A stretch of 64,000 nucleotides of DNA from Candidatus Latescibacterota bacterium (GTDB taxonomy: Bacteria > Latescibacterota > CBDEFO01). Position 1 is the stretch's first letter; each line of letters opens with the position of its first letter. The position numbers were made by a program, and so were the translations under genes. The DNA lies in assembly GCA_965237525.1 (NCBI GenBank), contig CBDEFO010000007.1, positions 1 through 64,000 of the forward strand, read 5' to 3'. The notes under the pieces were generated by a model. The model had not been told where the DNA came from, did no database searches, and saw only the letters and a program-made list of their open reading frames with translations. Positions 2,378-59,196 of this stretch are shown piece after piece.

Positions 2378-3529
2378 CTATCTATCTAAATCCAAACGGG
2401 CCCAATGAATGTCCATGGACGTTTCCGTTCCCGCGTAGTAGACAACTAACACATCGCCATCAGGAAGGGCCTCTGAATAGGGTAGACCAAAGGTCCAAAG
2501 CGACATATCCGCCAGAAGTGCAGCAGTATCATCGTCAGCCGAATCCTGAGCTGAGGCTGCACTGTGCGAGTAAATCACCACTTCTGTCGCAGGATCAAAG
2601 GGTGCCTCGATGGAGGGGGCCAAACGCGCTCGAATCGAACGGGTACCGAAGCGGTCCACCCACGCAAGGACGACGCGTCCGTCCTGCATTATGGCAGGAT
2701 GTGCTGCCTGGTCGGTAAAACCTAGATCCTCAAGGGGCGCCCAGGTCTGGCCTCCATCCGGGCTGATCCGGCGGTGGATATTGAGGTAAGTATTCGTCTG
2801 GCTGTCGTAGGTCCACAGAAAGGTAGCGATACGGCCGTCCGGGGCTACGCCAGCACGCTGGTCCCAGTAGAAGATGCGGCCCGTCGGATCCTGGCTGGCT
2901 GTGACGGGCTCACCCCAGGTCTGACCCAGATCAGTTGAATGAAACAAGACAACTCGTTGGTGCCACGTGGAACTATCTTCGTAGGGTTTGTTCGTCTCAA
3001 CACTTAACACTAAAGTACCGTCGGGAAGTACCATGATCGGGTTCGTTAAACTCGGCGGGCCAATATCCAGCGGGCATCGGAACCACTCGGCACGGAGTCC
3101 ACGTTTCTCCGAAATCGTGTGAATCGGCCAGCAGAAGCTCTATCGGCAGACAACCCTCGGTCTCGGGGTTGAACAGCGGCTTGCCAGGGTAAGTCTCCCG
3201 ATCGATCCACAAGTAAGCCGCGATTAGGTGGCCCCCGATAGGTTCAATCGGGGGTGAAAGCTCGGTAAGGTAACAGGGACCTGAGTGACCCCTGTAAGCC
3301 TCCAATTTGCGTCCCTTCGAAAGGCCGTTTCGGTGCACTCCAGGTCTGACCGCTATCCTGAGAACGATAAAGCTTCGACTGTTCCATCGGGAGAGTCCTT
3401 GTTCGAGCCAGCGCGGCAGGTGGCCATCAGCGTGCCATTGGAGAGCGCAACTACACTAGAGAAAGTCAATAGCGCTCGTTCGGTCCCCGCTACGCCACTG
3501 GACAGAATGCCTTTCTCAATAATTCTCAT
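2378..3529 (-). pseudogene. Sialidase/BNR (Asp-box) family protein, frameshifted
   Basis: Asp-box motifs SHDFGETW, STDLGQTW and SPDGGQTW across split ORFs; ATG at 3529 (MRIIEKG); contains a palindrome at 3232-3254. Confidence 0.75.
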
Positions 3530-3798
3530 AGAATTCAGCGCAGGAGACTCCCAGTTTAATTAAGTAGGAAGCATACAGGGATAAGAGGCGTTGCCCTGTC
3601 TACCCCCGATTGCATCTATCGGGGGGGTCGGGCGTTACTGTGTACTGCATTTGCGCGGGAGAGAAATGCGCCTTTCCTCCTTTCTATTTGACAAATTATT
3701 CGAACCATGTAAGAATCCCCTTTCGGGTTCCCAAAAAAGTTTTCGATACTTTTTTGGGGGAAGGAGGTCCCGTGACGCTTCTTTGTAAACGTTGTCAA

Positions 3799-4865
3799 TC
3801 ACGCGTAACGTGTGCGGAGCAATTCTGCCGCCTGACACATCGCCTTGAGCTTCAGATACGCTTCGTCCAGGTCCATGGGGTTCTGAACCGACGGTGAGAA
3901 GCCACAGTCCGGATGCAGTGTGATGCGCTCGGCTTCCACATAGCGCATGGCCCTTTCCACTCGTGCGACCACTTCCTCTGGAGTTTCCACCTCTCGGTCG
4001 CAGTGGTCAATGCACCCGAATCCCAACCGCACTTTCTCAGGGAATTGAGCCAGGGACTCCAGGCCACTGGCTACTGGAGTGGCATATTCCATCGAGATCG
4101 TACCGACCCGCAACTTGGCCAGTGCCGGCATGATCAGATCGTAGGGGCCCTCGGTGGCGTGCTTGTGGTCAAAATGAGCGTGGCACAGGTGGATTCCTGT
4201 TTTCACATCTTCGATCCCATCCACCGTCTGATTGATAAGATCGACGCACAGGGTCCATTTCGTACTGCACGTCAGTGACACCATCTTTCTCGCGAAAGCT
4301 GGGATCGACCATTGTAGCCAGCCAAGGCTCATCGAGCTGCACTGTGTCCGCTCCGGCGTCGCGGAGCGCCTCGATTTCCTGTCGGAGGATCGGCACACAA
4401 GCGGCCATCAGTTTCTCGGGGGTGGGGTACGCCGCTTTCGAGTGCTCCGGATGCCACATCCGCCGGCCGATAATGTATGGAGCAGGTAAGGTGGCCTCGA
4501 CGCGTCGCTGGGTTCGCTGCCGGATATAACGAATCTCCTCAACAGCTATGGGACGGTAATACTCGACCGGTGCTACCACAGCCGGGTAGGGTAATCCACC
4601 AGCTGGGATTCAGGTCGGGCTGGAAGCCCCGCACGCGTTCGGCAAAGACCTTGACGTAGCTCTCCCGACGCCATTCGCCATCGGTGATCTCTTCCAGCCC
4701 TGCCCGCTCTTGCAGCAGAAGAACCGATTCGATGGCCCGGTCCAGCACCTCGTCTACTTCTTGCTCAGATATCCTCCCGTCCTTGCGGTCCAAGATGAGC
4801 TCACGCACCCAGGCCGGGCGGGGCAGACTGCCGCTGACAGTAGTAGGGAACAGTGTATTTGTCAT
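3799..4865 (-). pseudogene. Cobalamin-independent methionine synthase II-like protein, frameshifted
   Basis: PTTVSGSLPRP, TDGEWRRES, QLDEP, HLC and HPDCGF motifs spread over three frames. Confidence 0.8.
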
Positions 4866-5444
4866 GACAATTCTCCTCTCTTCAGGTCTTAGCATTTGGA
4901 AGACGACGCGCTAAAGCGCAGCTTGGGAAACTTTGAACATCGGAGCTGTATTTAAGCCGTGAACGCGACCGTTGCAGTATCTGTCTAATATCTTCAGCGA
5001 GCTTTAGCAAGAGTGGCAAGTATGAGAAAACTACAGTTTCTTTGTGACTGCTTAATTATAAAAAAATGACGGCGTAAAATCAAGTACTTACCAAAGCTAT
5101 TTTCAGAAGGAGTTTTACAGATACGTGTGAAAAGTGGGATGTTAGACATCTCCGCCGCAAACGCGCCGCAAATTCGATGTCTGAAGACGCGCGAAGCCTC
5201 ACAGAGCTTGGAGATGCGCCGGCCGGGAAAGTTGAGAAGCTTGTCTCGCCTCAGATTGTGCGAATGTCAGGCACAAGGGCAAAAGCGAAGCTGTTAACGG
5301 TTAGGACTGAGATTTCCATTGACTTCCACTATCTTGTTTTATATGTTCTCATCTACTGCGGCATCTATTACTAAGTATGGGGTCAAAACCCGTGTGATAT
5401 GTTTTGGAAAGGGAGAAAGCTGATCCAAGCTTTGGCACGAACAG

Positions 5445-6303
5445 ATGCAGGGAGGGATGAAAAATGCAGGAGAAGGAACCTATCCGCCTCGCATCCTCGT
5501 CGTAGCTGCCCACCCACACCATTTTACGCACTGCGCCGGTACCTGCGGCATCCACACCTCCCGGGGAGACTCGGTAACGGTAGTATGTGTGACCGACGGT
5601 GTTAACATACATAACGAGCGATTGCACGACGAGCTGATGAGGCCGGAGGAGGATCGGGATGCTAATATAGTCAACCAAACGGCACAAGAGTACGCTGAGA
5701 TGAAAGCTAATGAAGTCCGCGAAGTCTGCGACCTTTTCAGGGTAGCCGACGTACGTATGCTGGCTTTTACTCAGTCTTTCCGTCTGGACAAGGTGCCTGA
5801 GGCGGTCGAGACATCATCTACGATGTGCGCCCCGACTTGTTAATCACGCATAGACCCTACCTCAGCGGACCACACGGAATGGACACTGCCGCTCAGGACG
5901 ATCACAACGAGGTAGCATTTGCTGTCCATGAGGGCGGCAATCCAGGCGGCGACGCCCGACGATGTGACCAAGCATAGGCCGCATAACATAGCGGCCACAT
6001 ATTGTCCGGGCGTCTATTTCATGTCGGATGAGATCGACTTCTATGTGGATATCTCCGAATGGAAGGAGCAGCGGGTTCAGGCGGAGTGCCTTTTCAGCAG
6101 TCAGGGTCACACCGAAGCCTATGCCCGCAAGAGACTTGAGATCGGCGCGGGCAGAATGGGCCGCACGCTAAAAGAGAGTATGCGAGGGGTTCGTGCGCGC
6201 AGCGCCAGAAGTTCTGCCGCGGATAATCGTGCCGGAATTAGCCTTGCAACAGGCCTCGGAGCTCCGAATTAACCACATGAAGGTAGCCATAGGTGAACTG
6301 TAA
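5445..6303 (+). pseudogene. PIG-L/LmbE-family deacetylase, frameshifted
   Basis: ILVVAAHP..F and VCVTDG in ORF 5445-5843; FYVDISEW in ORF 5919-6272. Confidence 0.7.
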
Positions 6304-6442
6304 GAAGATCAATAAAATAAGCCTCTTACAAAAATTACATCTCTTGTATCAATCGATGCCGATAGGTCGGGGACAGGAGCAATTATCAACTTTCCCGCAG
6401 AAGTCTTGAAGAACTCATTAGGGGTACTGAAAGGAGAACGTA

Positions 6443-7306
6443 ATGGCAAAAACGGAGATGAAAGTTGAACGCCCGAAGATTCTCCACATGGCTACTCTGT
6501 GGACTCTGACCGGTTACGGTGGCAAGAAGGGAGAGTGGACCACTGAGCAGAAACTGCGGCGTATCCAGAACGCTGGGTTTGACGGATTCCTGGCACGGGT
6601 GCCGGTGGTGACCCGTGAACAAGTGGACAAGTACGGGCTTACCTTCGCAGCCACTGTGGATATAGGGAGCGCCAAGGACGTAATGCCCCAGCTCAAGGCC
6701 GCCAACGAAGTGGGCGCACGATGCGTCAATGTGCAGATGCTCGACCACGATACACCGACCAGGAAGGCAGTGGCTCTGGCCCGGCGCGTGATGGCCGCGG
6801 CGGACAATCTACAGATGGATGTGGCTATTGAGGTGCACCGGGATACCTGCACCGAGACACCGGAGAAGGCCTACGCTCTGGCCGAAGGGTTTGAAAAGGC
6901 GGAGAAGCGGCTGCTCAAGATGACGTGGGATTTTTCGCATCCTGCCGTTGTCAAGCATCTCTCGCCGCCCTACTGGGATCGACTGGCCGAGCGGGTGGAC
7001 CTGATCCAGTACGCGCAGCAGTTCCATTTCCGGCCCTTCAACGGGCACCACTGCCAGATTCCGGAGCTCGGACGGGGTGGGAAGCTCACTCCGGAGTTTC
7101 TGGACTGGCTGGAATTTGCCGAGAAGGTGATTGAGTGCTGGCTGCAGGCCGCCACGCCGGGACGGGAGATGTTCGTCTGTCCAGAGCAGGGGGCTGCGGG
7201 ATATTTCCTGTCCGTCTTCGGAGACCGATGGAAGGACGTGCAGGCGATTCGAGATGAGGTGGACCGGGCCTGGAAGAGGCAGTTGAGAAATTGGACGAGC
7301 AAATGA
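6443..7306 (+). CDS. Xylose isomerase-like TIM barrel (sugar phosphate isomerase/epimerase family)
   Basis: Intact 287-aa ORF with an AAGGAG RBS; IEVHRD, WDFSH and CPEQG motifs. Confidence 0.7.
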   Translation: MAKTEMKVERPKILHMATLWTLTGYGGKKGEWTTEQKLRRIQNAGFDGFLARVPVVTREQVDKYGLTFAATVDIGSAKDVMPQLKAANEVGARCVNVQMLDHDTPTRKAVALARRVMAAADNLQMDVAIEVHRDTCTETPEKAYALAEGFEKAEKRLLKMTWDFSHPAVVKHLSPPYWDRLAERVDLIQYAQQFHFRPFNGHHCQIPELGRGGKLTPEFLDWLEFAEKVIECWLQAATPGREMFVCPEQGAAGYFLSVFGDRWKDVQAIRDEVDRAWKRQLRNWTSK

Positions 7307-7456
7307 AAACCCTGATCTCCGGCGCGTGAGCACGTAGCCTCCGATTGAATCTATCAAGGGTAAACATGGCTACCACGCGCCTCCCTGTCTGCCGCTTGCT
7401 GTCTATTTGTATATATGGACCGACCCCATTTTCTTCCGTCTCTGACCGGTGGGTCT

Positions 7457-7831
7457 TCAGAGCTCGAGCGGCTCGGGAGTACGTAGAATGAACGTCTTCT
7501 TGATGTAGTTTGGCACATGCCATTTCGTTTTCAGCCCCAGCGGAAAATGGACAAAATCGCCCGCCCGAAAAGTGTGCCGTTCACCACCTTCTTCCTCGAT
7601 GGTCGCTTCGCCCTCGAGCACCATTACGAACTCGTCCCAGCCGTATTCCCAACTGAACTTGCCCGCTGTGCAGTCCCAGACACCCTGCGTCACCTTGAGG
7701 TCGGACGACTGCTCCGAGATCCAAATTCTGGCAACGGGTTCGCCTTCCAGAATCTGTTCCTCAGGGATTGGAAAATCAGTAAGCTGGACTGATGATCCCT
7801 CGTTCACCTTGACTGATAGTGTGCTCATCAT
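7457..7831 (-). CDS. Cupin (DUF861/EutQ-like) protein
   Basis: GVWDCTAGKF, EFVMVLEG and AGDFVHFPLG motifs; AAGGAG RBS. Confidence 0.8.
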   Translation of the reverse strand: MMSTLSVKVNEGSSVQLTDFPIPEEQILEGEPVARIWISEQSSDLKVTQGVWDCTAGKFSWEYGWDEFVMVLEGEATIEEEGGERHTFRAGDFVHFPLGLKTKWHVPNYIKKTFILRTPEPLEL

Positions 7832-8045
7832 CGTCTCCTTTCTGTGGGACTTCTTCCGATCCCCGACCCCCGATTGAATCTATCGGGGGTTCAATCGGGG
7901 ACTGACCTAATCTTTCATCTACAGTGCTGATCTTGTCCTCGCCTCGGAATCTCGTTGTAGATCACAAGTCGTCTGCAAGCTTGTCGAAGATTTGTATCCC
8001 TTCCCGTATTTTCACTGGCGCCCTGCTTCAGCGAAGATCACGACA

Positions 8046-8876
8046 TCATATTGGGGTATGTTGGCGGTACGCCGCCACTGCCTGCGTCGCTGCCGCGCTG
8101 ATCAACGATAACTCGCTGACCAGTTCGAAGAACTGACATCCTTCAGCGATCCACTTAGCCCCTGACTCCGGCCCTGAGGCGGTCGTGCCGAACGGCACTT
8201 TGTGCTTCAAGCACAAGTCAAGTATGTCACGCATCGGTTCCTTGACGCGGGGATGATCGTATTCGCCGGGATAGCCCATCGCTATTGAAAAGTCATAGGG
8301 TCCCACATAGACCATATCCAGATCTGGTGTGGTAATGATCTCCTCCGCGTTCTCGTAGCCCATGGCTGTTTCTATATGGGCCATGATCACGGTGGACTGG
8401 TTTGCCTTCTTCAACCACGCCTTGTCATCCTCGGGGCTGACGTAGTCTACATTTCCAAAGCCCGGGGCTGCAGCACGTGTCCCCGCCGGCGGGAACTTCA
8501 TATAATCGATCAGGGCCATCAGCTCCTCGCGGGATTCGGTGCGGGGTAGCTGGATGCCTACAACACCGGCTTCCAGTAGACGCGCGACCTCGGGCCGGCC
8601 CAGCTCGCCCACCTTGGAAATGACGGGAACCTGATTGTCGCGGGCGCAAAGCACGAAGTCTGTCATCTCGCTGCCGTCAAAGTAAGCGTGTTCTTTTTCG
8701 ATGAAGATGAAATCGAAGCCGGCATAGCGATATTTCTTAACCAGCGATGGGCGGAGGTATTCGGACACTATACCTCCCAGAAGGACATCACCTGCCTTGA
8801 GACGTCTCTTGAAGGCGCGTCCGAGGACGGTGGGATCATGCTTTTGGGGATGTTGTATCTTTCTGGTCCTGGCCAT
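8046..8876 (-). CDS. HpcH/HpaI aldolase family protein
   Basis: GFDFIFIEKEH, HIET and VGPYDFS motifs; start reassigned to the ATG after GGAGG. Confidence 0.8.
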   Translation of the reverse strand: MARTRKIQHPQKHDPTVLGRAFKRRLKAGDVLLGGIVSEYLRPSLVKKYRYAGFDFIFIEKEHAYFDGSEMTDFVLCARDNQVPVISKVGELGRPEVARLLEAGVVGIQLPRTESREELMALIDYMKFPPAGTRAAAPGFGNVDYVSPEDDKAWLKKANQSTVIMAHIETAMGYENAEEIITTPDLDMVYVGPYDFSIAMGYPGEYDHPRVKEPMRDILDLCLKHKVPFGTTASGPESGAKWIAEGCQFFELVSELSLISAAATQAVAAYRQHTPI

Positions 8877-9703
8877 GCTCATCCTCCACTGGGCCCCAAA
8901 AAGTATCGAAGAACTTTTTGGAGGGGGGAAAGTAAGAAGTTCTACATTTATAAAAATTATGGCAGAATACGGCCACTCGTGAGTGGCGGATGAATACCAT
9001 CGGGGAAGGAGGAGGGCATCTCCCAAGGGCGGGGTTTGAAGCCCCGCCCGCGGAGTGCCTAAGTTGAGTTGCGCCGAAGGCGGTGACTCAACGTGGCTTC
9101 ACTGAAACAGTTAGGCACACCGTTGGATCGTCCCCGATTGATTCTATCGGGGACTGGCGGAGCGCGTTGATACCGATCCTCATCCCTTCCTTACACTACC
9201 CATAAGTCGTGGGTAATCACCTCCTCCGAAGTCAAGATATCCGCTCCATCCTCTGTGATTAGTACTACATCCTCAAGGCCGAACTTCTCTTCAGCCTTCC
9301 AGAACGGGTAGACGCCGTTCAATGTGATAAAGGGTTCAACGGACAACACCATGTTCTCCTGTAACACGGCCGTGCTGGTCGCACTTAGACCCGGCTGTTC
9401 ATGCAGGTCCAGTGCGAGACTGTGGCCAATCGCCGACCAGCCAGACTCCAGACACCACTGTGAGAAGGCGCCAAAGCCCGCTGCATCGTTCACCGCGAAC
9501 GCCGCCTGAAGCGGCACATTTAATGGGACACCGGGTTTCATCACTTCGATGGCGGCGAAGAGCCCCTCCCTGGCGAGATCATAGAAGCGTCTCTCTAGGG
9601 GCCGCGGTTCTCCGACGGCAGACATGCGCTTGAAGTCGCACCAGTAGCCCTCGTATACACAGCCGCCGTCAAACTGCACCAGGTCTCCTGACTGGATCAC
9701 ATA

Positions 9704-11009: not shown

Positions 11010-11823
11010 TAGTCAGTAGGCATACCAGCAGCCCACATGGCTCGTGGCCCGGCGTACAATGCATTGAAACGCTGCTCGCTGGCCCCTCAGCGCACATGAC
11101 TGATGTTATGATGTCTATCACGTAGGCTTCTCTGTCATCCCGGGTATGAGGGCTTCAAACCCGGCCTTGACGCCCTTGGCGGTGATATCTGTGGCTCTGC
11201 GCAGGCTCGCGATCTCAGCGGGAGATTTGATGCTGCGTACCTCCCAGATAGAATCACTGGCATCCACAATCTTGGCATGCGGTAGGCCCTGAAGGATGGA
11301 AGTAAAATGGGTATGCGCCATGTGTGCGTGAATATCTGCGCCAAGCTCCATGCCAATGACACCGGGATCAAGCCGTCTCTCTTTCAATACGTCCAGGACC
11401 AAGGATACGGCGTTCGACTTCTCGGACATGTAAAAGGCCTTTTCCCAGGGCCAGTAGCGCAGATCCTCGATCCAGCACTGCTTCAGCAAGTGATTGAAGC
11501 CGTTGGCGACCAGCAGGATCGGATCACCTGCAGCCGGCAAGATGGTCAGAAAGTAGAAATGATGTGCATCCCAGGCGCCGTCCCGCAGGCCGGCAAAGTA
11601 GCGCAAGTTCTGCCGCTGGGTTAGGAAAAGCGCATCAATGCCATGCTGCCTGAGGCTTTGTTGGGTACGGGCATACCGCGCTGTGTACTCCTCGCGTGGA
11701 AAGTCAGGAAACATGAGCTTTTTCATTTCAATGTGGGCTCCGGGAAACTTCGGCGCTTGATCTCTGGCTCCTTCACGGGGTCTTATCCCCGATGGATTCA
11801 ATCGGGGACCAATGCGACCCGGT

Positions 11824-12714: not shown

Positions 12715-12813
12715 GTTCCTCTCCTTTCACATAAGAAGAAAAAGTGAAATAAATCGCTTGTCCCCCCCGATTAAATCGGGGGTTGATTCTATCGGGGAAT
12801 TGACCTTTCCGGT

Positions 12814-16116: not shown

Positions 16117-16259
16117 ACCAGATTGCTTCGCTTCCCCACCCCCAAGTGAATCCCCGATAGACTCAATCGGGGACTCGGAATGACGCTTGATCTGTATCTT
16201 TCAACTGCTTGGCTTGGATCCTGGGTCATTGCTAGGGGCGTTAGCCCCGAAGCAATTTC
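16117..16259. repeat. GTCATT...GCAAT-type (CGTC-like) REP doublet, one arm carrying the 21-bp palindrome
   Basis: GATTGCTTCGC...CTCGGAATGAC and GTCATTGCTAGGGGCGTTAGCCCCGAAGCAAT. Confidence 0.65.
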
Positions 16260-20196: not shown

Positions 20197-21715
20197 AAGC
20201 CTTGTGAAAAACCCTTAGATTCAGAAAGTAGTATAGAACAAGCATTGATAAAGCAGTTCCGATGTATTATATTATGTTATTGATAATATTATACATGGAG
20301 GAAACAATGACCCCACAAAAGCAGGAACAGACAAATCCGATGTTTCACTATTTTCAGATGGAGGATTTAGTTCCCGAGGATCATATCCTTCGTCAGATTG
20401 ATGAGGCAGTTGATTTTTCATTTGTACGAGACGTTGTATCAGATTGTTATTGCCCTGACAATGGCAGACCCGGTATTGATCCTGAATTAGTTGTTCGAAT
20501 GATCCTTATTGGCTATCTGTATAATTTGAGTGAGAATCGGCTCTGTCAGGAAGTGGGGATGCATGCGGCATATCGGTTGTTTTGTCATCAGACATTTGAT
20601 GATGCGGTTCCGGATAGGAGCACGATCAACAAGCTTCGCAATCACAAGTGGGCATCCAGTGGGTTGTTTGAACGGATAATGCGTCAGGTAGTCCAGTGTT
20701 GCATAGATGTCGGTCTTGTGAGCGGTAAACACCTTAGTGTCGACGGCACTCAGATACAAGCTGATGCTTCAGTGAAAAGTATTGAGCCGATAGAACCCCC
20801 TTTTTCTCTTGATGATTATCTCAAGGGAATCGGTTTTGAAGGTGATAAGACAAAGGGTAGGTCCGGGCATCCTCAGGATAAAGACTTTCATGGTGAAAAG
20901 TGGACGAACCAAACACACCGTTCGACTACAGACCCCGACGCGCGCTTATACAGCAAATCGAAGGGCAAAGGGGCTTTTCTCTCGTTTATGGGCCATGATC
21001 TGATCGACACAAAAAGCAGAGTAATCCTTGAGACTCAGGGCACGCAGGCGACAGGGACAGCAGAGCCCGAAAGTGCCCTTAAGATGGTAGATGACCTTGA
21101 AACATACACCATGCCCAAAGACATTCAGACACTTAGTGCCGATACCGGTTACGGTTCTGGTAATTTTATCGCTGATGTACTTGACCGGGGAATCATACCC
21201 CATATTCCTCTGCGAGCCGATGAGAAGATTGAACCGATTCCTACATGGAAAAACAAGACAAATTCAGCACATATTCAGGCCGAACGGGATAGAAAAGTGC
21301 GAGAGGCGAAAGCCAGAAATCATGCACGGTCTATCTCATTAACAGCTGACTACAAACTCTCCCGGAGACTCCGTAAACGCAGTGAACATATCTTTGCTGA
21401 AGCCAGGCAACAACACGGTATGGGACGAGCCCGTTATAGAGGACCAGCCTCACTGAATGAACAGTTGAATCTTGTTGCAACAGTACAGAATCTCAAGAGG
21501 CTTGTATCTTTCATAAGAAGGGGGAAAGCGTCTATGTGTGCCCTGTCTGTCAAAGACAGTGCATCCTGTTCTTCAAACAGCTCCTGTTCCTTGCTGACCA
21601 GAACTCTGATAAGACTATTTTGCTTATTCCACAGCAAAACGATACGATATGCTACTCTTTGACCCATAATCGGCGCTTCAGACGCTGCCTGGGACATAAC
21701 TATTTCACAAGGCTT
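20197..21715 (+). mobile_element. IS1182/IS5-like element copy 1 (1519 bp), TSD TTAG
   Basis: TIRs AAGCCTTGTGAAA and TTTCACAAGGCTT; TTAG on both sides. Confidence 0.95.
20307..21662 (+). CDS. IS1182-family DDE transposase (DUF772 plus DDE)
   Basis: GRPGIDP, SVDGT, STTDPDAR, ADTGYG and RKRSEHIF motifs; GGAGG RBS before MTPQ. Confidence 0.9.
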   Translation: MTPQKQEQTNPMFHYFQMEDLVPEDHILRQIDEAVDFSFVRDVVSDCYCPDNGRPGIDPELVVRMILIGYLYNLSENRLCQEVGMHAAYRLFCHQTFDDAVPDRSTINKLRNHKWASSGLFERIMRQVVQCCIDVGLVSGKHLSVDGTQIQADASVKSIEPIEPPFSLDDYLKGIGFEGDKTKGRSGHPQDKDFHGEKWTNQTHRSTTDPDARLYSKSKGKGAFLSFMGHDLIDTKSRVILETQGTQATGTAEPESALKMVDDLETYTMPKDIQTLSADTGYGSGNFIADVLDRGIIPHIPLRADEKIEPIPTWKNKTNSAHIQAERDRKVREAKARNHARSISLTADYKLSRRLRKRSEHIFAEARQQHGMGRARYRGPASLNEQLNLVATVQNLKRLVSFIRRGKASMCALSVKDSASCSSNSSCSLLTRTLIRLFCLFHSKTIRYATL

Positions 21716-22491: not shown

Positions 22492-22698
22492 TTAATCACC
22501 TCCTTCGGGTTGATCCCCGAAAGAATCCATCGGGGACTGATCCCGCGATTCGGGGTTGATTGCGGGGAGAAGGATAGTCAGAGTCATCCCGATCTCCTCT
22601 GTGCGGTGGACATCTATCTTCTCCCCGTGATCATCTATTTCCAAATTATCTATTCTTTTGATCTTTTCGAAATCTGAGCATACACCACCTTTTGTCAT
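22492..22698 (-). pseudogene. Probable remnant of a histidine kinase C-terminus
   Basis: HGEKIDV...GMTLTILLP resembles the end of an HATPase_c domain; contains a palindrome copy. Confidence 0.4.
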
Positions 22699-25404: not shown

Positions 25405-27055
25405 CCTGCATTCCCCATATTAAACCAGAAAAATGCTTTCATAATATGTCTTAAGCATGTTATTATGTGATAAATAACATTAGAAAATATATGGCAAGTA
25501 CTGCCACCCGGAGGGTGAAAGAATGAAAGTAGGTTTTGATGGAGGAATAAAGCTTGAATTTCATGGTGCAAAGGTGACATCAAACGGTGGACTTCTTGCG
25601 TATCGTGACCTTGATTAGGCACTGGGATTATTTGATTCGGTATCAGCGGTTTTTACCGATAAACGCACAGACCGTAATATCCGACATGATATATCTACTC
25701 TCCTGCGTCAATCGATATACAGCCGCCTTGCAGGATATGAAGATGTAAATGACGCCGAGCGATCACCGGAAAGAAGGACAAAGGCAAGCAAGCCGCCAGC
25801 TCCAACACGATAGGACGTTTTGAAACTGAGACACTGACTAAGCATGACAATCTCAGAAGCTTGTCAGATATCAATGGCAAGTGGGTTCAAAAAGCGATGA
25901 GTAAAACACAGCATCAACGAATTGTTCTGGACATGGACAGTTCGGAGAGTCCGGTACATGGCGAGCAGGAAGGATCAGCTTGCAACGCTCATTTCCGGTG
26001 TACCTGTTTTCATCCACTGTTCTGCTTCAATCACTTCGGGGATTGTGAAGGAGTCCTGCTTCGCTCTGGTAATGTTCACAGTGCTGATCTCCCCGATTGA
26101 ATCTATCGGGGACGAATCGTCAAGAGATAGGAGAGCAAAAAGAATAGGAAATACTTTCGAGGCGATGCTGCATTCGCAAAGCCTGAGATTTATGATTATC
26201 TGGAGGAAAACGGCTATTTGTATGCCAATTGGCTTCCCGCAAATGAGATACTTTATGAAAAGATTCGATACCTGCTGACTCGGCCAATTGGACGACCTCC
26301 GAGGAAACCGATTGTCTTGTTATGTGAATTTCAATATAAAGCGGCCAGTTGGGATCAATCGAGGCGAGTGGTCGCCAAGGTTGAATGGCACCAAGGGGAG
26401 CTGTTCCCCCGGGGGGCTTCATCGTCACCAACCTGTCGGCCAGGCCGGAAGGTGTGGTACACTTCTACAATGGCCGAGGCACTGCTGAGCAGTGGATCAA
26501 GGAGGGCAAGTATGCCCTGAGCTGGACCCGGCTGTCCTGCCACAGGTTCGTGGCCAACCAGGTGCGGCTGCACTTGTTCATCCTGGCCTACAATCTGGGG
26601 AACTTCCTGCGCAGGCTCTCCCTACCCAAGACGGTCAAGGACTGGTCGCTGCGAAGCCTCCAGGTCAAGTTCATCAAGATCGGGGGGAGGCGAGTTCGCC
26701 ACGCGCGGCGGTCCGTGTTTCAGCTCGCCGAGGTGGCGGTGCCTCAGGAGGTGTTCCGACAAGTGCTGGAGGGTATCGCCGGGCTCCATCCATCCCCAGG
26801 GTAGCGAGTGTGCTTGATGTCATCACGGGTGATCAAGGGTTGCCAAGGGTGAGGTGCGTGCCTGGGAGAGTGGGAAGGGAGCCAAAGCATGTTGGGAGTG
26901 GTGTTCCCGTGCGATGGATCGCTAACCTGCCGCATCAACAGGTCGTCCAGTGGGGACGATGAGGACTTGACCGCGCTCGAGAGTGCCAGCACCTTTAGCG
27001 TCGTCAACGATGGGGGATTCTTGGGACGCCAGCACTTTCATATGGGAAATGTCGG
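25405..27055 (+). mobile_element. Degenerate, apparently chimeric IS1380-family element
   Basis: TIRs CCTGCATTCCCCATAT and ATATGGGAAATGTCGG; fragments LDMDSSESPVHGEQEG, GNVHSAD, YNGRGTAEQWIKEGK and ANQVRL with stops and frameshifts. Confidence 0.85.
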
Positions 27056-33107: not shown

Positions 33108-33145
33108 CGTTTACATTGTTGCCCCCGATAGATTCAATCGGGGGT

Positions 33146-36039
33146 TCAATCGTTGTATGTACCTAACTGACGATACTCATTAAGCTTGTTTCTTAAGGTT
33201 CTGACGCTAATCCCGAGAACCTCTGAAGTTTTATCTTTGTGACTGTTTTGTTCTTTTAAGGTCTCCAGTATGAGGGTCTGTTCCACTTCTTTCAGAGTCT
33301 TGCCAGTCAGGTTGAATTTATTCCCGTTATGGGACGCAGGACGTGTCCTTTCGAACCGGAAGTCTTTGGGGGTTAGGATCTCAACTTTGCTCATCACAAC
33401 TGCCCGCTCTATGCTGTTTTCCAATTCCCTGATGTTCCCCGGCCAATCCATCTCTAACAAAAGATCCAACGCCTCATCCGAAAGCCCGTTAATTCTTTTT
33501 CCGTTCTCCTTGCTGTACTTGTTCATAAAGAACTCAGCCAGAAGCGGTATATCCTCTTTCCTCTCTCTTAAAGAAACCGGGAAGAGCGGGATTACGTTAA
33601 GTCTGTAGAAAAGGTCTTCTCGGAACCTTCCTGCCTCTATCTCCTGGTTTAGGTCTCTGTTGGAGGTGGCTATTATCCTCACATCCACGCTTACGCTCTT
33701 TTCCCCTCCGACCCTCTCAAACTCTCTTTCCTGAAGCACGCGCAGGAGCTTCCCCTGAAGCGACGGAGTTATCTCACTGACTTCATCTAAGAGCAGTGTC
33801 CCGCCGTGTGCCATCTCGAACTTCCCCTTAGTCTGACGGATGGCACCTGTGAAGGCACCTTTCTCATGCCCGAACAGTTCGCTTTCCACCAGGCCTTCGG
33901 GCAGGGCAGCACAGTTTATCTTGATGAAGGGGTTGTCTCTCCTGTTGCTGTTGTAGTGGATAGCCTTGGCTATGACCTCCTTGCCTGTCCCGCTCTCCCC
34001 TTGTATGAGGATAGTGGCTCTGGTGGATGCCGCCACCTCTATAGTCTCAAAGACCTCTTGCATCTTTGGGCTCGTTCCGACTATTATGTTGTCGAACCTG
34101 TACTTACCCCTCAGTTCCGATCTAAGGTATCTGTTTTCGTCTATGAGCTTTTTGAGTTCGAATATCTTAGAGACTCTGACTTCTATCTCGTCAGCTGAAA
34201 AGGGCTTGGTAACGTAATTGCGGGCGCCGTCTTTCATCGCCTCGACAGCGTTGTTTATCGTTCCGTAGGCTGTTACTATTATGACATCTGTGGAGGGAGA
34301 AATCTCTTTCGCCGCGTGTAATACTTCCATCCCGTCTGCGCCCGGCATCTTCAAATCTGTCAATATCAGATCGTAGGAACCTGATGTGATCTTGCTAATC
34401 GCTTGTTTTCCATCTGCTGCAAGATCGATCTGGAAACTCTTTCTTTCTAAAAGCCTTGTGAAATAGTTATGTCCCAGGCAGCGTCTGAAGCGCCGATTAT
34501 GGGTCAAAGAGTAGCATATCGTATCGTTTTGCTGTGGAATAAGCAAAATAGTCTTATCAGAGTTCTGGTCAGCAAGGAATAGGAGCTGTTTGAAGAACAG
34601 GATGCACTGTCTTTGGCAGACAGGGCACACATAGACGCTTTCCCCCTTCTTATGAAAGATACAAGCCTCTTGAGATTCTGTACTGTTGCAACAAGATTCA
34701 ACTGTTCATTCAGTGAGGCTGGTCCTCTGTAACGGGCTCGTCCCATACCGTGTTGTTGCCTGGCTTCAGCAAAGATATGTTCACTGCGTTTACGGAGTCT
34801 CCGGGAGAGTTTGTAGTCAGCTGTTAATGAGATAGACCGTGCATGATTTCTGGCTTTCGCCTCTCGCACTTTTCTATCCCGTTCGGCCTGAATATGTGCT
34901 GAATTTGTCTTGTTTTTCCATGTAGGAATCGGTTCAATCTTCTCATCGGCTCGCAGAGGAATATGGGGTATGATTCCCCGGTCAAGTACATCAGCGATAA
35001 AATTACCAGAACCGTAACCGGTATCGGCACTAAGTGTCTGAATGTCTTTGGGCATGGTGTATGTTTCAAGGTCATCTACCATCTTAAGGGCACTTTCGGG
35101 CTCTGCTGTCCCTGTCGCCTGCGTGCCCTGAGTCTCAAGGATTACTCTGCTTTTTGTGTCGATCAGATCATGGCCCATAAACGAGAGAAAAGCCCCTTTG
35201 CCCTTCGATTTGCTGTATAAGCGCGCGTCGGGGTCTGTAGTCGAACGGTGTGTTTGGTTCGTCCACTTTTCACCATGAAAGTCTTTATCCTGAGGATGCC
35301 CGGACCTACCCTTTGTCTTATCACCTTCAAAACCGATTCCCTTGAGATAATCATCAAGAGAAACAGGGGGTTCTATCGGCTCAATACTTTTCACTGAAGC
35401 ATCAGCTTGTATCTGAGTGCCGTCGACACTAAGGTGTTTACCGCTTACAAGACCGACATCTATGCAACACTGGACTACCTGACGCATTATCCGTTCAAAC
35501 AACCCACTGGATGCCCACTTGTGATTGCGAAGCTTGTTGATCGTGCTCCTATCCGGAACCGCATCATCAAATGTCTGATGACAAAACAACCGATATGCCG
35601 CATGCATCCCCACTTCCTGACAGAGCCGATTCTCACTCAAATTATACAGATAGCCAATAAGGATCATTCGAACAACTAATTCAGGATCAATACCGGGTCT
35701 GCCATTGTCAGGGCAATAACAATCTGATACAACGTCTCGTACAAATGAAAAATCAACTGCCTCATCAATCTGACGAAGGATATGATCCTCGGGAACTAAA
35801 TCCTCCATCTGAAAATAGTGAAACATCGGATTTGTCTGTTCCTGCTCTTGTGGGGTCATTGTTTCCTCCATGTATAATATTATCAATAACATAATATAAT
35901 ACATCGGAGCTGCTTTATCAATGCTTGTTCTATACTACTTTCTGAATCTAAGGGTTTTTCACAAGGCTTCTAAGACTTCTTTGAGAAAATCTCTCATTAG
36001 TGGCTCATCATCTACTACGAGGATGCATCCTTCCGACAT
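33146..36039 (-). pseudogene. NtrC/FleR-type sigma54 response regulator interrupted near codon 23 by IS copy 2
   Basis: The true start MSEGCILVVDDE at 36039 rejoins ERKSFQ after the IS is removed; GESGTGKE, GAFTGA and HTH motifs are intact. Confidence 0.9.
34451..35969 (-). mobile_element. IS1182/IS5-like copy 2 (1519 bp), TSD CTAA, intact transposase
   Basis: TIRs, TSD and the ORF at 34504-35904. Confidence 0.95.
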
Positions 36040-50212: not shown

Positions 50213-50555
50213 CCTGCGAAACGCTCAAATAGTCATACAAGATGACGATCCTCCTACCGATACTGTCTGTTTTCATTGTCAGCAGGCGGTGGAAAAGTAC
50301 CTGAAAGCTTTTCTCATCTCTAACGCCCAGGAACCTCCCAGGCACCACGATCTGATCGAACTTTTGTCTTTGTGCATCGATATTGATAAAGACTTCCACA
50401 AAATACGGGACGAAGCTGAACTCCTCACAAAATATGGACTTATACCGCGTTATCCGTCTGACCCTCCTATCTATTATGCCAAATATGAAGCTGAAGAAGC
50501 AATAGAAAAGGCTAAGATCGCTGTGGATTTTGTAACCTCCAAGATTAAAAGGTAA
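50157..50555 (+). CDS. HEPN domain protein
   Basis: CFHCQQAVEKYLKA, HDL and RYP motifs; overlaps the MNT gene. Confidence 0.85.
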   Translation: MTEKHLILVGEWIYKGNNDLRNAQIVIQDDDPPTDTVCFHCQQAVEKYLKAFLISNAQEPPRHHDLIELLSLCIDIDKDFHKIRDEAELLTKYGLIPRYPSDPPIYYAKYEAEEAIEKAKIAVDFVTSKIKR

Positions 50556-50629
50556 CTATTTGTATCCGAGCACCACGAGGACGGTTTTCTTTTTGTTCTC
50601 CTTATGTAAATCTATTGACAAAGGTCTAA

Positions 50630-51513: not shown

Positions 51514-51576
51514 TTAGAGGATTCGCTATATTCCTTGATCCCAATCGTAAATTACTTTGATGTTGATTTGGAAAAC

Positions 51577-51693
51577 AGGGACACCTCACTTAGAGTGAAT
51601 TGCCAGACAGGAATGTCTGACCCACCTTTTTTTATATGTCGGTAGAACAGACATTCTTGTCTGTTCCTATCTGTCCTAATTTAGTCTATAATC
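51577..51693. repeat. GTAG-type REP doublet
   Basis: Near-identical to 45528-45645. Confidence 0.75.
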
Positions 51694-51741
51694 ACCTCTA
51701 GGCTATTTTGACCCGATACTCAAGATCATTTTGGAAAGTGA

Positions 51742-52497: not shown

Positions 52498-52655
52498 CTT
52501 TTAAAGCCTCCTTCGCTTCGAGATTGAAACGGTGATCGCGCATAACGCTCCGCCTGTTGCCGACGGTCCGAAGGACTGTCGGCAACAGGCGTCAGCCGAA
52601 GCTGAAGTCTGGCTGTTAGGAGAAGTCCCGTTAATCCCGGAGTCCAGGTTTAATC

Positions 52656-53093
52656 TTACTTTGGTTTGCCAGAGACGGTCAACGGGCCGTTGCGACCAAC
52701 GTTAGCCCACGTGGCGACTGCAATGGTTTCCTGATCGCTTTCGTTTGCTCCTGATATAACCGTACCTGCTGGAATATAAGCAATGTGACCGGAACGTATT
52801 TCGGACTTTTGACCATTGAGCCAAACAGTTAGCTTCCCCGAGTAAACGATCAAACTTTCGTCAAATACTGGATGATGGTGTTCTGTGATTCTTGCTCCCG
52901 GAGATAAACGCAGAGCTTTGGATGCCATATTGTCAGTTTCCCAGAGAACTGTACTGGTTAGCTCTCTCTCCTTTGGTTCAGTGAGCTCCGTAACATCGAA
53001 GAGACTGACCTTAAGTTTGCTTTCTGTTTGAGGTGTAGCTCCTATTAGCAGCGCACATACGCCGATGAAGATGATTTTGATATACATATACAC
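52656..53093 (-). CDS. Secreted cupin-domain protein
   Basis: HHHPVFDE and YIPAG motifs; signal peptide; GGAGGTG RBS. Confidence 0.7.
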   Translation of the reverse strand: MYMYIKIIFIGVCALLIGATPQTESKLKVSLFDVTELTEPKERELTSTVLWETDNMASKALRLSPGARITEHHHPVFDESLIVYSGKLTVWLNGQKSEIRSGHIAYIPAGTVISGANESDQETIAVATWANVGRNGPLTVSGKPK

Positions 53094-53102
53094 CTCCTCT
53101 GT

Positions 53103-53759
53103 TTAGTATTGCCTTGAGGGACAGAGTTCCGCTATATTGCATTCGCGACATTTGGGAGACCTTGCTTGGCAGGTTTTCCTGCCGTGATCTATCAGAAGGT
53201 GCGAAAAGAGGGTCCATTCTTCTTTTGGCACGATTTCCATAAGGTCACCTTCGATCTTGTCAGGATTCTGGTTTTCCGTTATGCCGAGTCTCTGGGAGAT
53301 CCTCTTTACGTGTGTGTCCACCACGACTCCAGGGATGCCGAAGGCGTTGCCAAGGACGACATTAGCGGTCTTTCTGCCGACTCCTCCGAGTTTTGTGAGT
53401 TCCTCCATGGTGGAGGGCACCTCTCCGTTGTGTCTTTCTACAATAGCCCCACAGCACATCTTTATACTTTTGGTTTTGTTCCTGAAGAAGCCTGTGGGAT
53501 GGATTTCCCTTTCAAGTTCCAGGACGTCCACGTCTGCGTAGTCCTGGGCGGTTTTATATTTTTTGAAAAGCTCTACTGTGACCTTGTTGACTCTCTCGTC
53601 CGTGCATTGGGCAGAAAGGATTGTGGCTATCAGCAGTTCTAGAGGATCGGAAAAGTTTAAGGCTGTACCTGAGTCGGGGAATTCGCCGTTGAGCATGGCG
53701 ATGATCTTTTTTGTGCGTTCTTTTTGGGCTTCTTTACTCTCCATTACATTACCCTCCAT
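53103..53759 (-). CDS. nth: Endonuclease III
   Basis: LSAQCTD, HhH motif GVGRKTA, VDTHV and the C-x6-C-x2-C-x5-C cluster. Confidence 0.95.
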   Translation of the reverse strand: MEGNVMESKEAQKERTKKIIAMLNGEFPDSGTALNFSDPLELLIATILSAQCTDERVNKVTVELFKKYKTAQDYADVDVLELEREIHPTGFFRNKTKSIKMCCGAIVERHNGEVPSTMEELTKLGGVGRKTANVVLGNAFGIPGVVVDTHVKRISQRLGITENQNPDKIEGDLMEIVPKEEWTLFSHLLIDHGRKTCQARSPKCRECNIAELCPSRQY

Positions 53760-53789
53760 TAAATTACTCTAATCTACATTTGAGCAGAT

Positions 53790-54190
53790 CTATCTCTCCT
53801 TGAGTTTTTCTGTGTGCAATCTTAAAAGTTCCACTTCTTCTATCAGTTTTCTCTCCCGAAGGACCCTGTCTACTTTAGCTGACATTTCACCCAGACTGAA
53901 GGGCTTGACGATGAAGTCGCTGGATCCCTCACGCATGACGTCCATAAAGGTATATTCTTCTCCCAGAGCTGCCATGATGATCACTTCGACGTGAGCGTTG
54001 TGTTCTTTTACTGTTTTGAGGAGTTCTATGCCGTCCATGCCGGGCATTCTGAGGTCAGTTATAACTATATGGAGTAGTCCCCGTCCCTGATAAGCTGAAA
54101 AGCTGAATTTCCATCTGCAGCCACCTGGGTATCGTGCCCAAGGGCCTCCAGAAAATCACCGACCATATTGAGGACACCTGGGTCTGCCCC
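53790..54190 (-). pseudogene. Response regulator fragment (N-truncated, frameshifted)
   Basis: TDLRMPGMDG and IVKPF motifs; the upstream part is in another frame and is cut at the MFS stop. Confidence 0.65.
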
Positions 54191-55672
54191 CTAATGTCTA
54201 CTGTCTGATGACGAATCTGTGTTGCGCCTTTCTGTCATATTTCCTATGCTCTTTTTTATTGCCTTTCCTCCTTTTATAACTGTTCTGGAGGCTTTGACCA
54301 CGGGTCTGAACCAGAAATGGGCAAACTCCGTAATGCCATCTGCGGGAGTAAAGCCGTCTATGTGTCTCAGGACCCTCATGACGTGTCCTACGGTCTTAAC
54401 CTGTGGCTCGTCTATCCTTCGGAGCAGGATCACGGACAGGGACCGGGTGATAGCTGAGAGTATAAAGAGGAAATGCAGCCCGTAGAGGGTGTAGAAGAAG
54501 AGGGAGATTTTGTATTCGATCAGGACCACGGCCAAGGCTCCGCCTATTATAGGTGATAAAGAGCCGGAGATATTCTGGACGAGCTTGTGACTTGAGATGT
54601 ACATCGCCTTGTTTTCGTCGGGAGAGAGCTTCAGGACAAGGTTGAACGTGGTAAGCTGCTGTCCTGAGTTGAAACAGCGGACTAGGTGTACAAGGAAGAG
54701 GAGTATATAGCTTCCGGGTGAAACGAAGACCCAGAGTACGGGAAATATCGCTTTTACCGTGGCGCAGAAGGTGAGTATCGGCTTGTTGCCGAATTTATCT
54801 GCGAGGCGCCCCCAAAATCCTACTGCGTATAGACTTGCAATCTCTCCTACGGCTGTCAGGACAGCTATCCAGAGGTAAGGGACTTCGAGATATTTGATCA
54901 TATAGACCATAAAGAAGGGACCGGCAAATCCGACGCTCAAGTTCCAGGACATGTCGTACACCAGGAGTCTTCTGAAGGCACTGTTCCGGAAGGGGAGTCT
55001 GAAGGTCTGGAGGAAACTTAATTTCTCACGGCTCTTTACCAGTTTTGGCTCAGGGACAGCCCGTAAGGTTAAAATAGAGGCGAGGCTAAATGCGACGCCC
55101 GCTGCAAAGATGATCTGAAATCCCAGGATCTCACCTGCCGGCCCCGCTGTTCTCCAGTAGTCGATGAACAATCCGGCCAAGATTCCGATGATAATGTCCG
55201 AGGCTCCTAACGCCCTTATCCTGCTCGAAAAATATCTGCCCCTTATGCTTTCAGGAATCAGATCTGAAAGCCATGACACCCTGGAGACAAAGCCTATGGG
55301 GCCTACAAGGCCCGGAAATGCTATAATAATTATAAAGAGCCATATTCTAAGGTTGGGATAAGAACTCGCTACAACCCAGGGGAGGGCAACTATGAAGATC
55401 CTTGGGAGTCTGGAGAGGGTAAAGGAAAGGAGGCAGACTTTTTTTCTGCTTTCTATTCGTTCTATTATGTGATTGCTGAAAATCTGTGTGGAACTGAAGA
55501 GCAAAGGGAGCGAGGACAGGAGTCCTATGTGAAACTCCGATGCTCCTAATGCAAGCGCAAAACCGACTGTAAAGATACTATTGCTTCCCGCTATTGCCGC
55601 CATCGCACCCACCAGCGCGGCCTCGATAAGCAGCAGCTTCATTCCACGTTTTCGTTCCTGCTCTGTAATCAA
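54191..55672 (-). CDS. MFS transporter
   Basis: Multiple hydrophobic segments; WGRLADKFGNK motif. Confidence 0.85.
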   Translation of the reverse strand: MITEQERKRGMKLLLIEAALVGAMAAIAGSNSIFTVGFALALGASEFHIGLLSSLPLLFSSTQIFSNHIIERIESRKKVCLLSFTLSRLPRIFIVALPWVVASSYPNLRIWLFIIIIAFPGLVGPIGFVSRVSWLSDLIPESIRGRYFSSRIRALGASDIIIGILAGLFIDYWRTAGPAGEILGFQIIFAAGVAFSLASILTLRAVPEPKLVKSREKLSFLQTFRLPFRNSAFRRLLVYDMSWNLSVGFAGPFFMVYMIKYLEVPYLWIAVLTAVGEIASLYAVGFWGRLADKFGNKPILTFCATVKAIFPVLWVFVSPGSYILLFLVHLVRCFNSGQQLTTFNLVLKLSPDENKAMYISSHKLVQNISGSLSPIIGGALAVVLIEYKISLFFYTLYGLHFLFILSAITRSLSVILLRRIDEPQVKTVGHVMRVLRHIDGFTPADGITEFAHFWFRPVVKASRTVIKGGKAIKKSIGNMTERRNTDSSSDSRH

Positions 55673-55722
55673 TCCTCAGCCTATCTTCATGAATGTGTAA
55701 CAGTTACCACTGGGTCAGGTTC

Positions 55723-56298
55723 TCAGCCAGAACGCGGTACTGTCCCTCGTGAGCTTGGGGCTGGAGGTGGACTTTCTTCATGTAGTTGAGGGGCCCCGGC
55801 TATGTGTTCAAAGTCCCTGGACAACGCTTCGAGCAAGTGCGCTCCCGGCATGTAGAGCACCCGATTGATCTGGGCAGCGGAAAGATAAGATCTCTTTCCC
55901 TCCACCATATAGAAGTCCAAAATTGACCTTTTCTCCACGTTCTCCCGGAATATGCCTGTCATAAAGAGCGTATAGTCCCTTATGTGTCTCCTTATCTCCC
56001 ACTCCCTGGAGGGATTGAAACTTTCATCTGTGACATCGGAGGACTGAGATGCCTCTATAAGCATTTCCACGACCAGTTCCAGTCTTGTGTCCTCCGAGTG
56101 CTTGATCCGATAGAGCGCGTCGGTGCGGGCAAACCTCGTCAGCATGTCGCAGATATATTCCATTATCTCGGTGTTCCAAATTCTCAACTCCGAGAAGCTC
56201 ATCTGTATGAACCTGGAGAAGAAGCGCCTCAAAGACGGTTGGGGGATGTCATCAGGAGAGCCTGATCCTCCCACGTTGAAAGGATTCTCGACTTTCAT
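55723..56298 (-). CDS. Conserved hypothetical protein (C-terminus possibly frameshifted)
   Basis: AAAGGAG RBS; plausible helical protein (HIRDYTLFMTGIF). Confidence 0.55.
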   Translation of the reverse strand: MKVENPFNVGGSGSPDDIPQPSLRRFFSRFIQMSFSELRIWNTEIMEYICDMLTRFARTDALYRIKHSEDTRLELVVEMLIEASQSSDVTDESFNPSREWEIRRHIRDYTLFMTGIFRENVEKRSILDFYMVEGKRSYLSAAQINRVLYMPGAHLLEALSRDFEHIAGAPQLHEESPPPAPSSRGTVPRSG

Positions 56299-56595
56299 CT
56301 TTCATCCGCTCCTTTCAGCCAAATAATATCATCCTTACTGGGGGGTACTATAAAATGTAATTCCAAAAGGCCCCATCGTCAAGTGTTTTCCTGTCATCTT
56401 CGGGTTGCCTGGCCATAACCGTTGTCATTTGGGCATAGCCCGCAAATTCCGTCGGATCAAGCTGTTGCTTGCCAATTCCTTATGTCGTTGCCAGAAGTGT
56501 CCCTTCGGAGTCTGCTATTTGGGCAAAGTCTTTGAGATCCTCTGAGGTATCCTCTCCTCTGGATTCAAATATTATAGTGATAATATCTTATGTAA

Positions 56596-56653
56596 TATCA
56601 AATGTTTATGATTCAGTATCCTCTTACTTTGGAGGCAACGGCATGTGTTTTGC
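56596..56653 (+). promoter_or_regulatory. IHF site plus sigma54 -24/-12 promoter upstream of groES
   Basis: TATCAAATGTTTA matches WATCAANNNNTTR; CGGCATGTGTTTTGC is GG-N10-GC. Confidence 0.6.
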
Positions 56654-56752
56654 GCTGTGATAATCGTAGCACGTAAGCGAGCCATCAAAGATATAAAGAG
56701 GAATTCCGCCATTGTGGCCATGTCTCAAACAATTTAACAATGGAGGTTAAGT

Positions 56753-57040
56753 ATGAAGGTGAGGCCCCTATCAGACAGAATTTTAGTCAAGCGGATCGAG
56801 GAAGGGGAGGTTCAAAAGGGGGGGATAATCATCCCTGATACTGCCAAAGAGACGCCTCAAGAGGGCGAGGTGATCGCTACTGGTCCCGGAAGGACAGGAG
56901 ACGATGGGAAGCGCATCCCCATGGAACTTAAAGTGGGGAACAGGGTTCTCGTGGGCAAGTATTCCGGCACAGAAGTCAACGTAGACGGTGAGGAGCATTT
57001 AATGATGCGCGAGGACGATGTCCTTGCTGTAATAGAATAG
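56753..57040 (+). CDS. groES: Co-chaperonin GroES
   Basis: [17 protein letters not shown] and REDDVLA motifs. Confidence 0.98.
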
Positions 57041-57057
57041 GGGAAGGAGGAAAATAA

Positions 57058-58689
<1,632 letters not shown>

Positions 58690-58913
58690 GTAAGTAGACA
58701 GTAGCCCCCGATTGAGTTTCTCGGGGGTGGGCAGTAGACAGGGCAAAACCAAGTAGACAGCAAACAGCAAACAGTAGACAGGGAAGGCACTGCCACGTCC
58801 CACCCCATCCAAGTGCTTGTCCCCCTTACCAAGGGGGACCACAGGGGGTCCCAGTAGACGGGGCACAGCCTCTCATCCCTGTATGCTGTCTTAATAGAAT
58901 CAGGGTAGAAGGG

Positions 58914-58950
58914 AAGCCCGGTGTTATCCAAAGCGCCGGGCTTTTTGTTT
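58914..58950 (+). terminator. Rho-independent terminator
   Basis: AAGCCCGGTG...CGCCGGGCTT stem followed by a T-run. Confidence 0.65.
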
Positions 58951-58965
58951 GCCCGCAACTGGACA

Positions 58966-59196
58966 GGACAGACAAGAATGTCCGTCCTACCAACATATTA
59001 ACTCTTGTGGGTCACACATTCCTGTCTGACACCGTTGAGGTCGATAGAATCAGAGATTGCTTCCCCCGGATAGATTCAATCGCAGGCGCTCGCAATGACG
59101 GTGTAGGGGGCTCGCATGAAAGCTATCGGCTTGAAATATGACATTGTCCACGCTGGGGTCATTGCGAGGGGGATGAAATCCCCCGAAGCAATCTCG
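58966..59196. repeat. Adjacent GTAG-type and GTCATT-type REP doublets
   Basis: GGACAGACAAGAATGTCCGTCCTAC, GTGGGTCACACATTCCTGTCTGAC, GAGATTGC...CTCGCAATGAC and GTCATTGCGAG...GCAATCTC. Confidence 0.7.

Follow-up and report, generated by a model that had tools for sequence, protein, structure and literature searches.

A recently mobile 23-nt hairpin and its insertion footprint in a Latescibacterota genome

The first 64,000 nucleotides of contig C7 (CBDEFO010000007.1; the window) belong to the 4.58-Mb genome (49% GC) of a Candidatus Latescibacterota bacterium and carry a short hairpin that recurs in genes, in other repeats and in copies of itself. The original prediction had listed 13 sites of a palindrome of about 21 bp, and 12 of them match the 21-mer within three mismatches (19 strand hits, where chance would give 0.02 on average). 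The thirteenth, at 12762, is a composite rather than a plain copy, in which a 19-nt sibling hairpin stands in place of bases 3-6 of the 21-mer. The hosts are as had been described, namely a coding sequence (3232), an IS1380 remnant (26091), arms of repetitive extragenic palindromes (REPs; 16152 and 59063) and an array of the heptamer TAGACAG (58705). The copies are given below as 23-nt units, of T..A or C..G type after their terminal bases, and are compared with a congener (G001) of the same genus that is about 95% identical and 98% complete, with 2.8 of 4.54 Mb (62%) compared.

3232..3254, minus strand: copy of the C..G type, in frame within a BNR/sialidase-like gene; common to the congener.
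3603..3625, plus strand: copy preceded by a CTGTCTA heptamer; in the congener the locus is further rearranged and longer by 9 nt.
7338..7360, plus strand: worn copy with 3 mismatches; common to the congener.
7860..7901, plus strand: nested composite, an older T..A copy in which an inner C..G copy (7867-7889) has replaced 4 nt; simple in the congener (net +19).
9131..9153, plus strand: copy of the T..A type; common to the congener.
11786..11808, minus strand: simple copy; nested in the congener (+19, the same four bases replaced).
12761..12798, plus strand: composite, a 21-mer whose bases 3-6 have given way to the 19-nt sibling hairpin (12764-12782); common to the congener.
16134..16173, minus strand: copy (16151-16173) with the remnant of another copy, within a REP arm; nested differently in the congener.
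22514..22536, no strand assigned: worn copy within a longer hairpin; common to the congener.
26090..26112, plus strand: copy in the IS1380 transposase remnant, where it takes the place of about 20 nt; the congener has two empty paralogues.
33122..33152, minus strand: copy (33122-33144) with an 8-nt vestige of an older copy after it; common to the congener.
58705..58727, plus strand: variant copy in the TAGACAG heptamer array; the congener alignment ends at the junction.
59064..59086, minus strand: worn copy in an arm of a GAGATTGCTTC..CTCGCAATGAC REP; common to the congener.

The predicted length of about 21 bp proved too short. In the 471 dereplicated loci used for anatomy, flank and nesting counts, the bases flanking the 21-mer pair in 78% of cases against 46% expected, and pairing outside the 23-mer shows no excess, being at or below expectation; the unit is therefore 23 nt. 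For the same reason, an extended 25-nt palindrome was rejected. Units comprise a T-core-A type (214) and a C-core-G type (150), and the flank subtypes proposed earlier did not hold up, T..AC being found in only 53 of 214 and R-C..G-T in only 48 of 150. The 23-mer folds as a stable hairpin on either strand (z about −3), and Rfam has no match within the window. The genome-wide count that the prediction had called for gave 561 loci, most of them singlets (465 lie more than 200 nt from the nearest other copy). At one mismatch, the element has 375 matches in this genome, 362 in the congener and a single one across the other 166 genomes of the phylum that were searched, and within the Latescibacterota genomes searched the element is found in one genus.

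The 23-nt hairpin is real and was mobile in the recent past, as filled and empty sites demonstrate. Among 219 uniquely mapped copies of this genome, 169 are shared with the congener, 5 are remnants there and 45 were scored as empty, although closer inspection showed a variant or nested copy at three of these 45, leaving about 42 empty. Conversely, of 191 congener copies 158 are shared with this genome, 7 correspond to remnants here and 26 to empty sites. The same is seen among paralogues: one REP family within this genome has 30 filled and 8 empty members, and the IS1380 copy at 26091 corresponds in the congener to one filled and two empty paralogues. Empty sites, orthologous as well as paralogous, are common, and the contrary outcome, a motif shared at every locus, did not occur. 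The notion of an ultra-short mobile element, akin to small dispersed repeats (SDRs), is upheld by these pairs. Where its direction can be judged, the change reads as gain, because empty unique sites hold target bases that loss could not recreate; the absence of the encoded peptide from several protein paralogues and the extra residues of PheS (below) also support gain.

Insertion leaves a characteristic footprint. The net gains of 52 non-redundant events (net change 10-33 nt) are +18 (9), +19 (9), +20 (8), +21 (4), +22 (2), +25 (2), +26 (4) and +27 (9), with five singletons, so that 30 events fall at +18 to +21 and 13 at +26/27, and none at +23/24. In the shorter class, 3-5 target bases have been replaced, and events of the longer class either duplicate 3-4 nt or bring a CCTG tail along, three events being near-exact +27 insertions of CCTG plus the hairpin. 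Junctions could be scored in 46 events and not in the remaining six; both junctions are clean in 12 of the 46, seven of which delete 3-5 nt and five of which duplicate 2-4 nt. Clean junctions are biased, with a purine just before the element in 40 of 49 and the tetranucleotide YYNR in 16 of 49 (12.5% expected). Outside heptamer arrays (408 copies), flanking direct repeats of 4 nt occur at 20 copies against 3.0 expected, and repeats of 3 nt at 22 against 9.7. The statement that no target duplication is evident was thus partly wrong. The flanking 4-nt repeats are YNNR in 21 of 21 and YTAR in none.

Within genes, insertions have been filtered for reading frame. Copies lie inside called genes in 84 of 558 cases (by a simple gene caller made for the analysis) and encode peptides of 5-9 residues. 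Polymorphic coding copies keep the frame in 12 of 12 cases, against 11 of 52 elsewhere, and the six coding cases defined from the empty allele, an unbiased set, are all in frame. The element thereby adds loops to conserved enzymes, an example being PheS, where a copy accounts for a 6-residue insert relative to solved homologues; the alignment of a MeaB-like protein was ambiguous. The gene that hosts the 3232 copy has an intact open reading frame of 382 aa as its congener orthologue. In the window this gene reads as broken by an extra base at 3067, which is absent from all four read sets; a base at 4251 is likewise absent from 4 of 4 read sets and one at 4601 from 3 of 4, and the splitting of the genes at 2378-3338 and 3799-4895 probably stems from misassembly.

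The hairpin also has a fixed target inside its own sequence. By strict criteria, 33 of 471 copies are nested in this genome and 23 of 332 in the congener, and in both orientations the inner copy replaces outer bases 12-15 (TCTA), in 32 of the 33 and 22 of the 23, respectively. The exceptions, one per genome, have a central T, and in them the mirror site is replaced instead. Nesting is polymorphic in the window in both directions, the copy at 7868 being nested here and simple in the congener and that at 11787 the reverse. The 19-nt sibling hairpin, which looks like the 21-mer minus these four bases, nests at the same position; it has a TTAAA loop, occurs at 12764-12782 and at 17 other loci, and carries 3-4-nt flanking repeats. 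Other repeats adjoin 92 of 372 copies against a background of 12%, about twofold, and a heptamer lies near 63 of 471 against 4%.

The best reading of these data, which we hold with moderate confidence, is that the hairpin inserts by a nick-and-paste reaction and spreads secondarily through host repeats. The target would be nicked just 3' of a purine, preferentially within YYNR, and the 23-nt hairpin would be pasted at the nick, or copied there by priming. The second junction would then be resolved a few bases off the nick, either downstream, at the cost of 3-5 target bases (+18 to +20), or upstream, with 3-4 bases duplicated (+26/27). Having landed in another repeat, be it a REP, a heptamer array or an earlier copy, the element would probably spread with its host by amplification or short-homology copying. 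On this view the hairpin multiplies in two ways: by inserting afresh into unique DNA, with a predicted strand polarity and presumably with the help of a dedicated trans-acting enzyme, and by spreading along with the repeats that host it.

Several observations weigh against this reading. No enzyme was found, and the congener is without an Ssn-type gene, a Y1 transposase or Cas1 despite its 362 matches at one mismatch and its own new insertions. Events that are not clean, among the 46 scored, carry 1-9 unmatched bases, and the replaced tracts range over 0-18 nt, and about 20 nt in IS1380, which is looser than a fixed stagger. Some of the 3-nt "duplications" arise from the heptamer period. Moreover, nested copies form three or four subfamilies marked by linked inner variants, and many occupy orthologous positions in both genomes and so do not count as independent events. 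Sharing of at least 6 bases on both flanks with a non-paralogous copy occurs at 72 of 471 loci, against 25 of 1413 in permutations, and together with the nested subfamilies these co-inherited flanks make few origins followed by copying likely. The claim that the palindrome invades itself and REPs therefore stands as to the existence of nested copies, but much of this pattern reflects a few origin events and the subsequent copying of composites.

A tentative alternative is that there is no dedicated nuclease and that all spread of the hairpin is due to template switching at short homologies or to gene conversion, in which the donor is copied together with its flanks between short matches. Besides the co-inherited flanks and the composite subfamilies, this would account for the link between the CCTG tail and the RTG loop variant, which carries the tail in 19 of 44 cases against 10 of 427 for the rest (about 9 of the 19 are in one tandem gene array), and for the existence of tail-carrying +26/27 insertions. 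Yet new insertions in unique genes match donor flanks weakly (a mean of 6.2 nt, against 4.5 at random sites), the shared flank of new events (mean 9.8) is barely over the swap control (8.7), and both the lack of +23/24 events and the purine rule at junctions speak against template copying. As a separate observation, a tandem paralogous gene array at C8:737651-748400 has CCTG-tailed copies at gene ends and in spacers, some of them forming head-to-tail 27-nt dimers.

Beyond this genus, the exact pattern is present in at least some Deltaproteobacteria (GWF2_42_12 type), an unrelated order in which 9 of 13 genomes carry it, and metagenome contigs of 36-68% GC carry it in REPs, in heptamer arrays and in other copies of itself, where no particular gene recurs next to it. 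Among 140 loci from other lineages, neither a recurring neighbour gene nor a shared long context was found. The exact pattern has no match in viral contigs, and no plasmid matched the element. One exact copy lies on a 3.5-kb contig (L171) labelled Nanoarchaeia archaeon, which is possibly misbinned. Repeats with the same stem, a NTGNNTCTA loop and a GTCAT tag are present in 9 of 61 genomes from another class, 54 times in one of them (G191), and in 6 viral contigs. These tagged repeats flank Ssn-type GIY-YIG nuclease genes at two loci, L370 (4 mismatches to the 23-mer) and L371 (3 mismatches; the gene is frameshifted). Beside the frameshifted gene, at about 410-445 of L371, a CCTG-tailed hairpin with a different loop lies within an SRM repeat, which suggests a wider class of tailed hairpins.

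From this resemblance, descent of the 23-nt hairpin from an Ssn-associated repeat hairpin that lost its GTCA tag is plausible; the element could, in the reverse direction, have converted SRM loops. A more far-reaching possibility, which we would put forward only cautiously, is that the hairpin is an escapee of the Ssn repeats: a free 23-nt replicator that encodes its own target, is pasted by nick priming with an offset of about 4 bases, passes between phyla with no carrier gene and adds short loops to essential proteins. If true, this would constitute a mode of DNA mobility distinct from the DDE, HUH and recombinase routes.

It is unlikely that an Ssn-type GIY-YIG single-strand nuclease now mobilises, in trans, a tag-less version of its own repeat. 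Near-identical hairpins do flank Ssn-type genes in other genomes, and this genome has one such gene, solo and of 94 aa (C4:479839-480120), that is 71% identical to one of those. The available portion of Chenal et al. 2025 (PMC11893778) moreover likens the NTS-ssnA-NTS layout to IS200/605 and RAYT. However, the resident gene lies between inverted NTS-like repeats of a different hairpin, itself between two duplicated gene fragments, and a query of its type found no such gene in the congener or in a further genome (G041). The 21-mer occurs at none of the 10 other GIY-YIG loci, and the published degenerate SRM pattern with its 5' tag fits 0 of 561 copies here and 0 of 332 in the congener. Finally, the parts of PMC11893778 at hand state that SsnA cleavage depends on bases upstream of the palindrome and that the cut lies a few bases ahead of the NTS. 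That Ssn moves the element today is doubtful.

The prediction had suggested a search for a RAYT/HUH, GIY-YIG or reverse transcriptase (RT) gene flanked by the motif, and none was found. The RAYT/Y1 transposase domain PF01797 is unmatched in both this genome and the congener. An RT was not found in this genome; the congener has two, one retron-St85-like with an effector (L017:11484-13370) and one DRT4-like (L014:17787-19310). Cas1 is absent from both Latescibacterota genomes and present in 3 of 3 others tested. Among three genomes tested for IS110, only this one has a copy, a single one; among four tested for DUF559, only this one has matches, two, both inside long proteins. A four-helix-bundle protein was not found in this genome. 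Genes with a copy on both sides number 30 of 3940 and are, by eye, ordinary housekeeping genes.

Peel-and-paste transposition by a REP/RAYT-type HUH enzyme, with the CCTG tail as a guide, is accordingly very improbable. It would suit the three near-exact +27 events in which CCTG came in with the hairpin, and HUH chemistry is compatible with joining the target 3' end to the element 5' end. Against it stand the missing PF01797 match and the preponderance of singlets, and target deletions and duplications are not expected of HUH integration.

Still less credible is a miniature non-autonomous element moved by resident DDE transposases (IS1182 or IS1380). A minority of copies do have 4-nt direct repeats, and IS1182-like elements are abundant, with about 130 full copies genome-wide that are more than 99% identical, the mark of a very recent expansion, and five in the window (one at 20262-21662). 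Their target duplication is mostly YTAR (first 25 of 130 sites), a sequence seen at none of the 21 element duplications; no shared terminal repeat was seen, and most events delete target bases. A separate repeat of about 195 nt, resembling a miniature inverted-repeat transposable element (MITE), occupies positions 1-197 of the window and has about 15 copies in this genome and more than 40 near-identical copies in the congener.

That the hairpin is a fixed regulatory site, an operator or terminator whose empty sites are deletions, can be dismissed as no more probable than DDE mobilisation: the hairpin is stable and +26/27 sites could be lost precisely between their direct repeats, but loss cannot recreate replaced bases, filled and empty pairs exist, 84 of 558 copies are in genes, and the placement fits neither function, with an even orientation in tandem spacers (172:170), no excess in divergent (62 of 451, 14%, against 18% of spacer DNA) or convergent spacers (47 of 451, 10%, against 11%) and a T-tract beside only 39 of 471 copies. 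Replication-strand bias is absent in this genome (200:184) and weak in the congener (127:171, p = 0.013, by a crude skew measure).

How repeats shorter than 30 nt multiply is an open question, to which this family contributes dozens of filled and empty pairs, a junction rule and a fixed self-target, although its hosts are uncultured. Its candidate ancestry in Ssn repeats would narrow the question to specific substrates and candidate enzymes. No description of this hairpin family was found in the literature, and the supplements of PMC11893778 and PMC3733652 may list it.

By analogy, the 23-nt hairpin is best regarded as an SDR-like very small mobile repeat, with an informative insertion footprint. 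SDRs are 21-27 nt long and insert precisely, without flanking duplication, and they are not known to have a mobiliser or a resolved mechanism. The small dispersed repeats SDR1-8 of the Nostocaceae were reportedly set out by Elhai et al. in 2008, in Genome Res 18:1484. They are treated in PMC5861425 and PMC4390886 and mentioned in PMC2884548, and in the available portions of these sources they are, like the 23-nt hairpin, dispersed hairpins with filled and empty sites that insert into other repeats and short motifs. The two differ in sequence and phylum and are compared here by description; the hairpin falls within 20-30 nt and shows presence and absence, but precise insertion without duplication is not seen, there being no +23 among the 52 events. 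SDR5 in particular inserts at a fixed position in HIP1, an insertion that the accessible text of PMC4390886 describes as precise, whereas the hairpin has its fixed site in itself and leaves 3-5 nt replaced or 3-4 nt duplicated.

The NTS/SRM repeats of the Ssn nucleases, related in the accessible parts of PMC11893778 and of Di Nocera et al. 2013 (PMC3733652) to CGTC-tagged REPs and dRS3, are the nearest in sequence. An SRM-like subfamily that flanks Ssn-type genes shares the stem and a 9-nt loop with the hairpin and differs from it at 2-4 of 23 bases. The hairpin itself has neither the GTCA tag nor the ATCC tail, flanks no cognate gene in its genome and moves bare; 15% of its copies are in genes, compared with 2% given for NTS in the portion of PMC11893778 at hand. 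CGTC REPs, too, appear in the available text of PMC3733652 as repeats without a known transposase.

REP and REPIN elements, which move with RAYT as described in the accessible part of Bertels and Rainey 2011 (PMC3116915), resemble the hairpin as short, mostly intergenic palindromes with hundreds of copies. The hairpin differs in forming singlets rather than inverted doublets and in its frequent in-frame insertion into genes, and it lacks the GTAG tag; no RAYT, and hence none flanked by the repeat, was found. Unlike a MITE, the hairpin has neither its target duplication nor its ends in common with a resident transposase (IS1182 targets compared). Rickettsia palindromic elements, by contrast, provide a precedent for the coding copies: as far as the available text of PMC10969869 and PMC3733652 goes, they lie in frame in unrelated housekeeping proteins and measure about 150 bp. 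The hairpin shares with these elements the in-frame insertion into conserved proteins, and does so at 23 nt rather than 100-150 bp.

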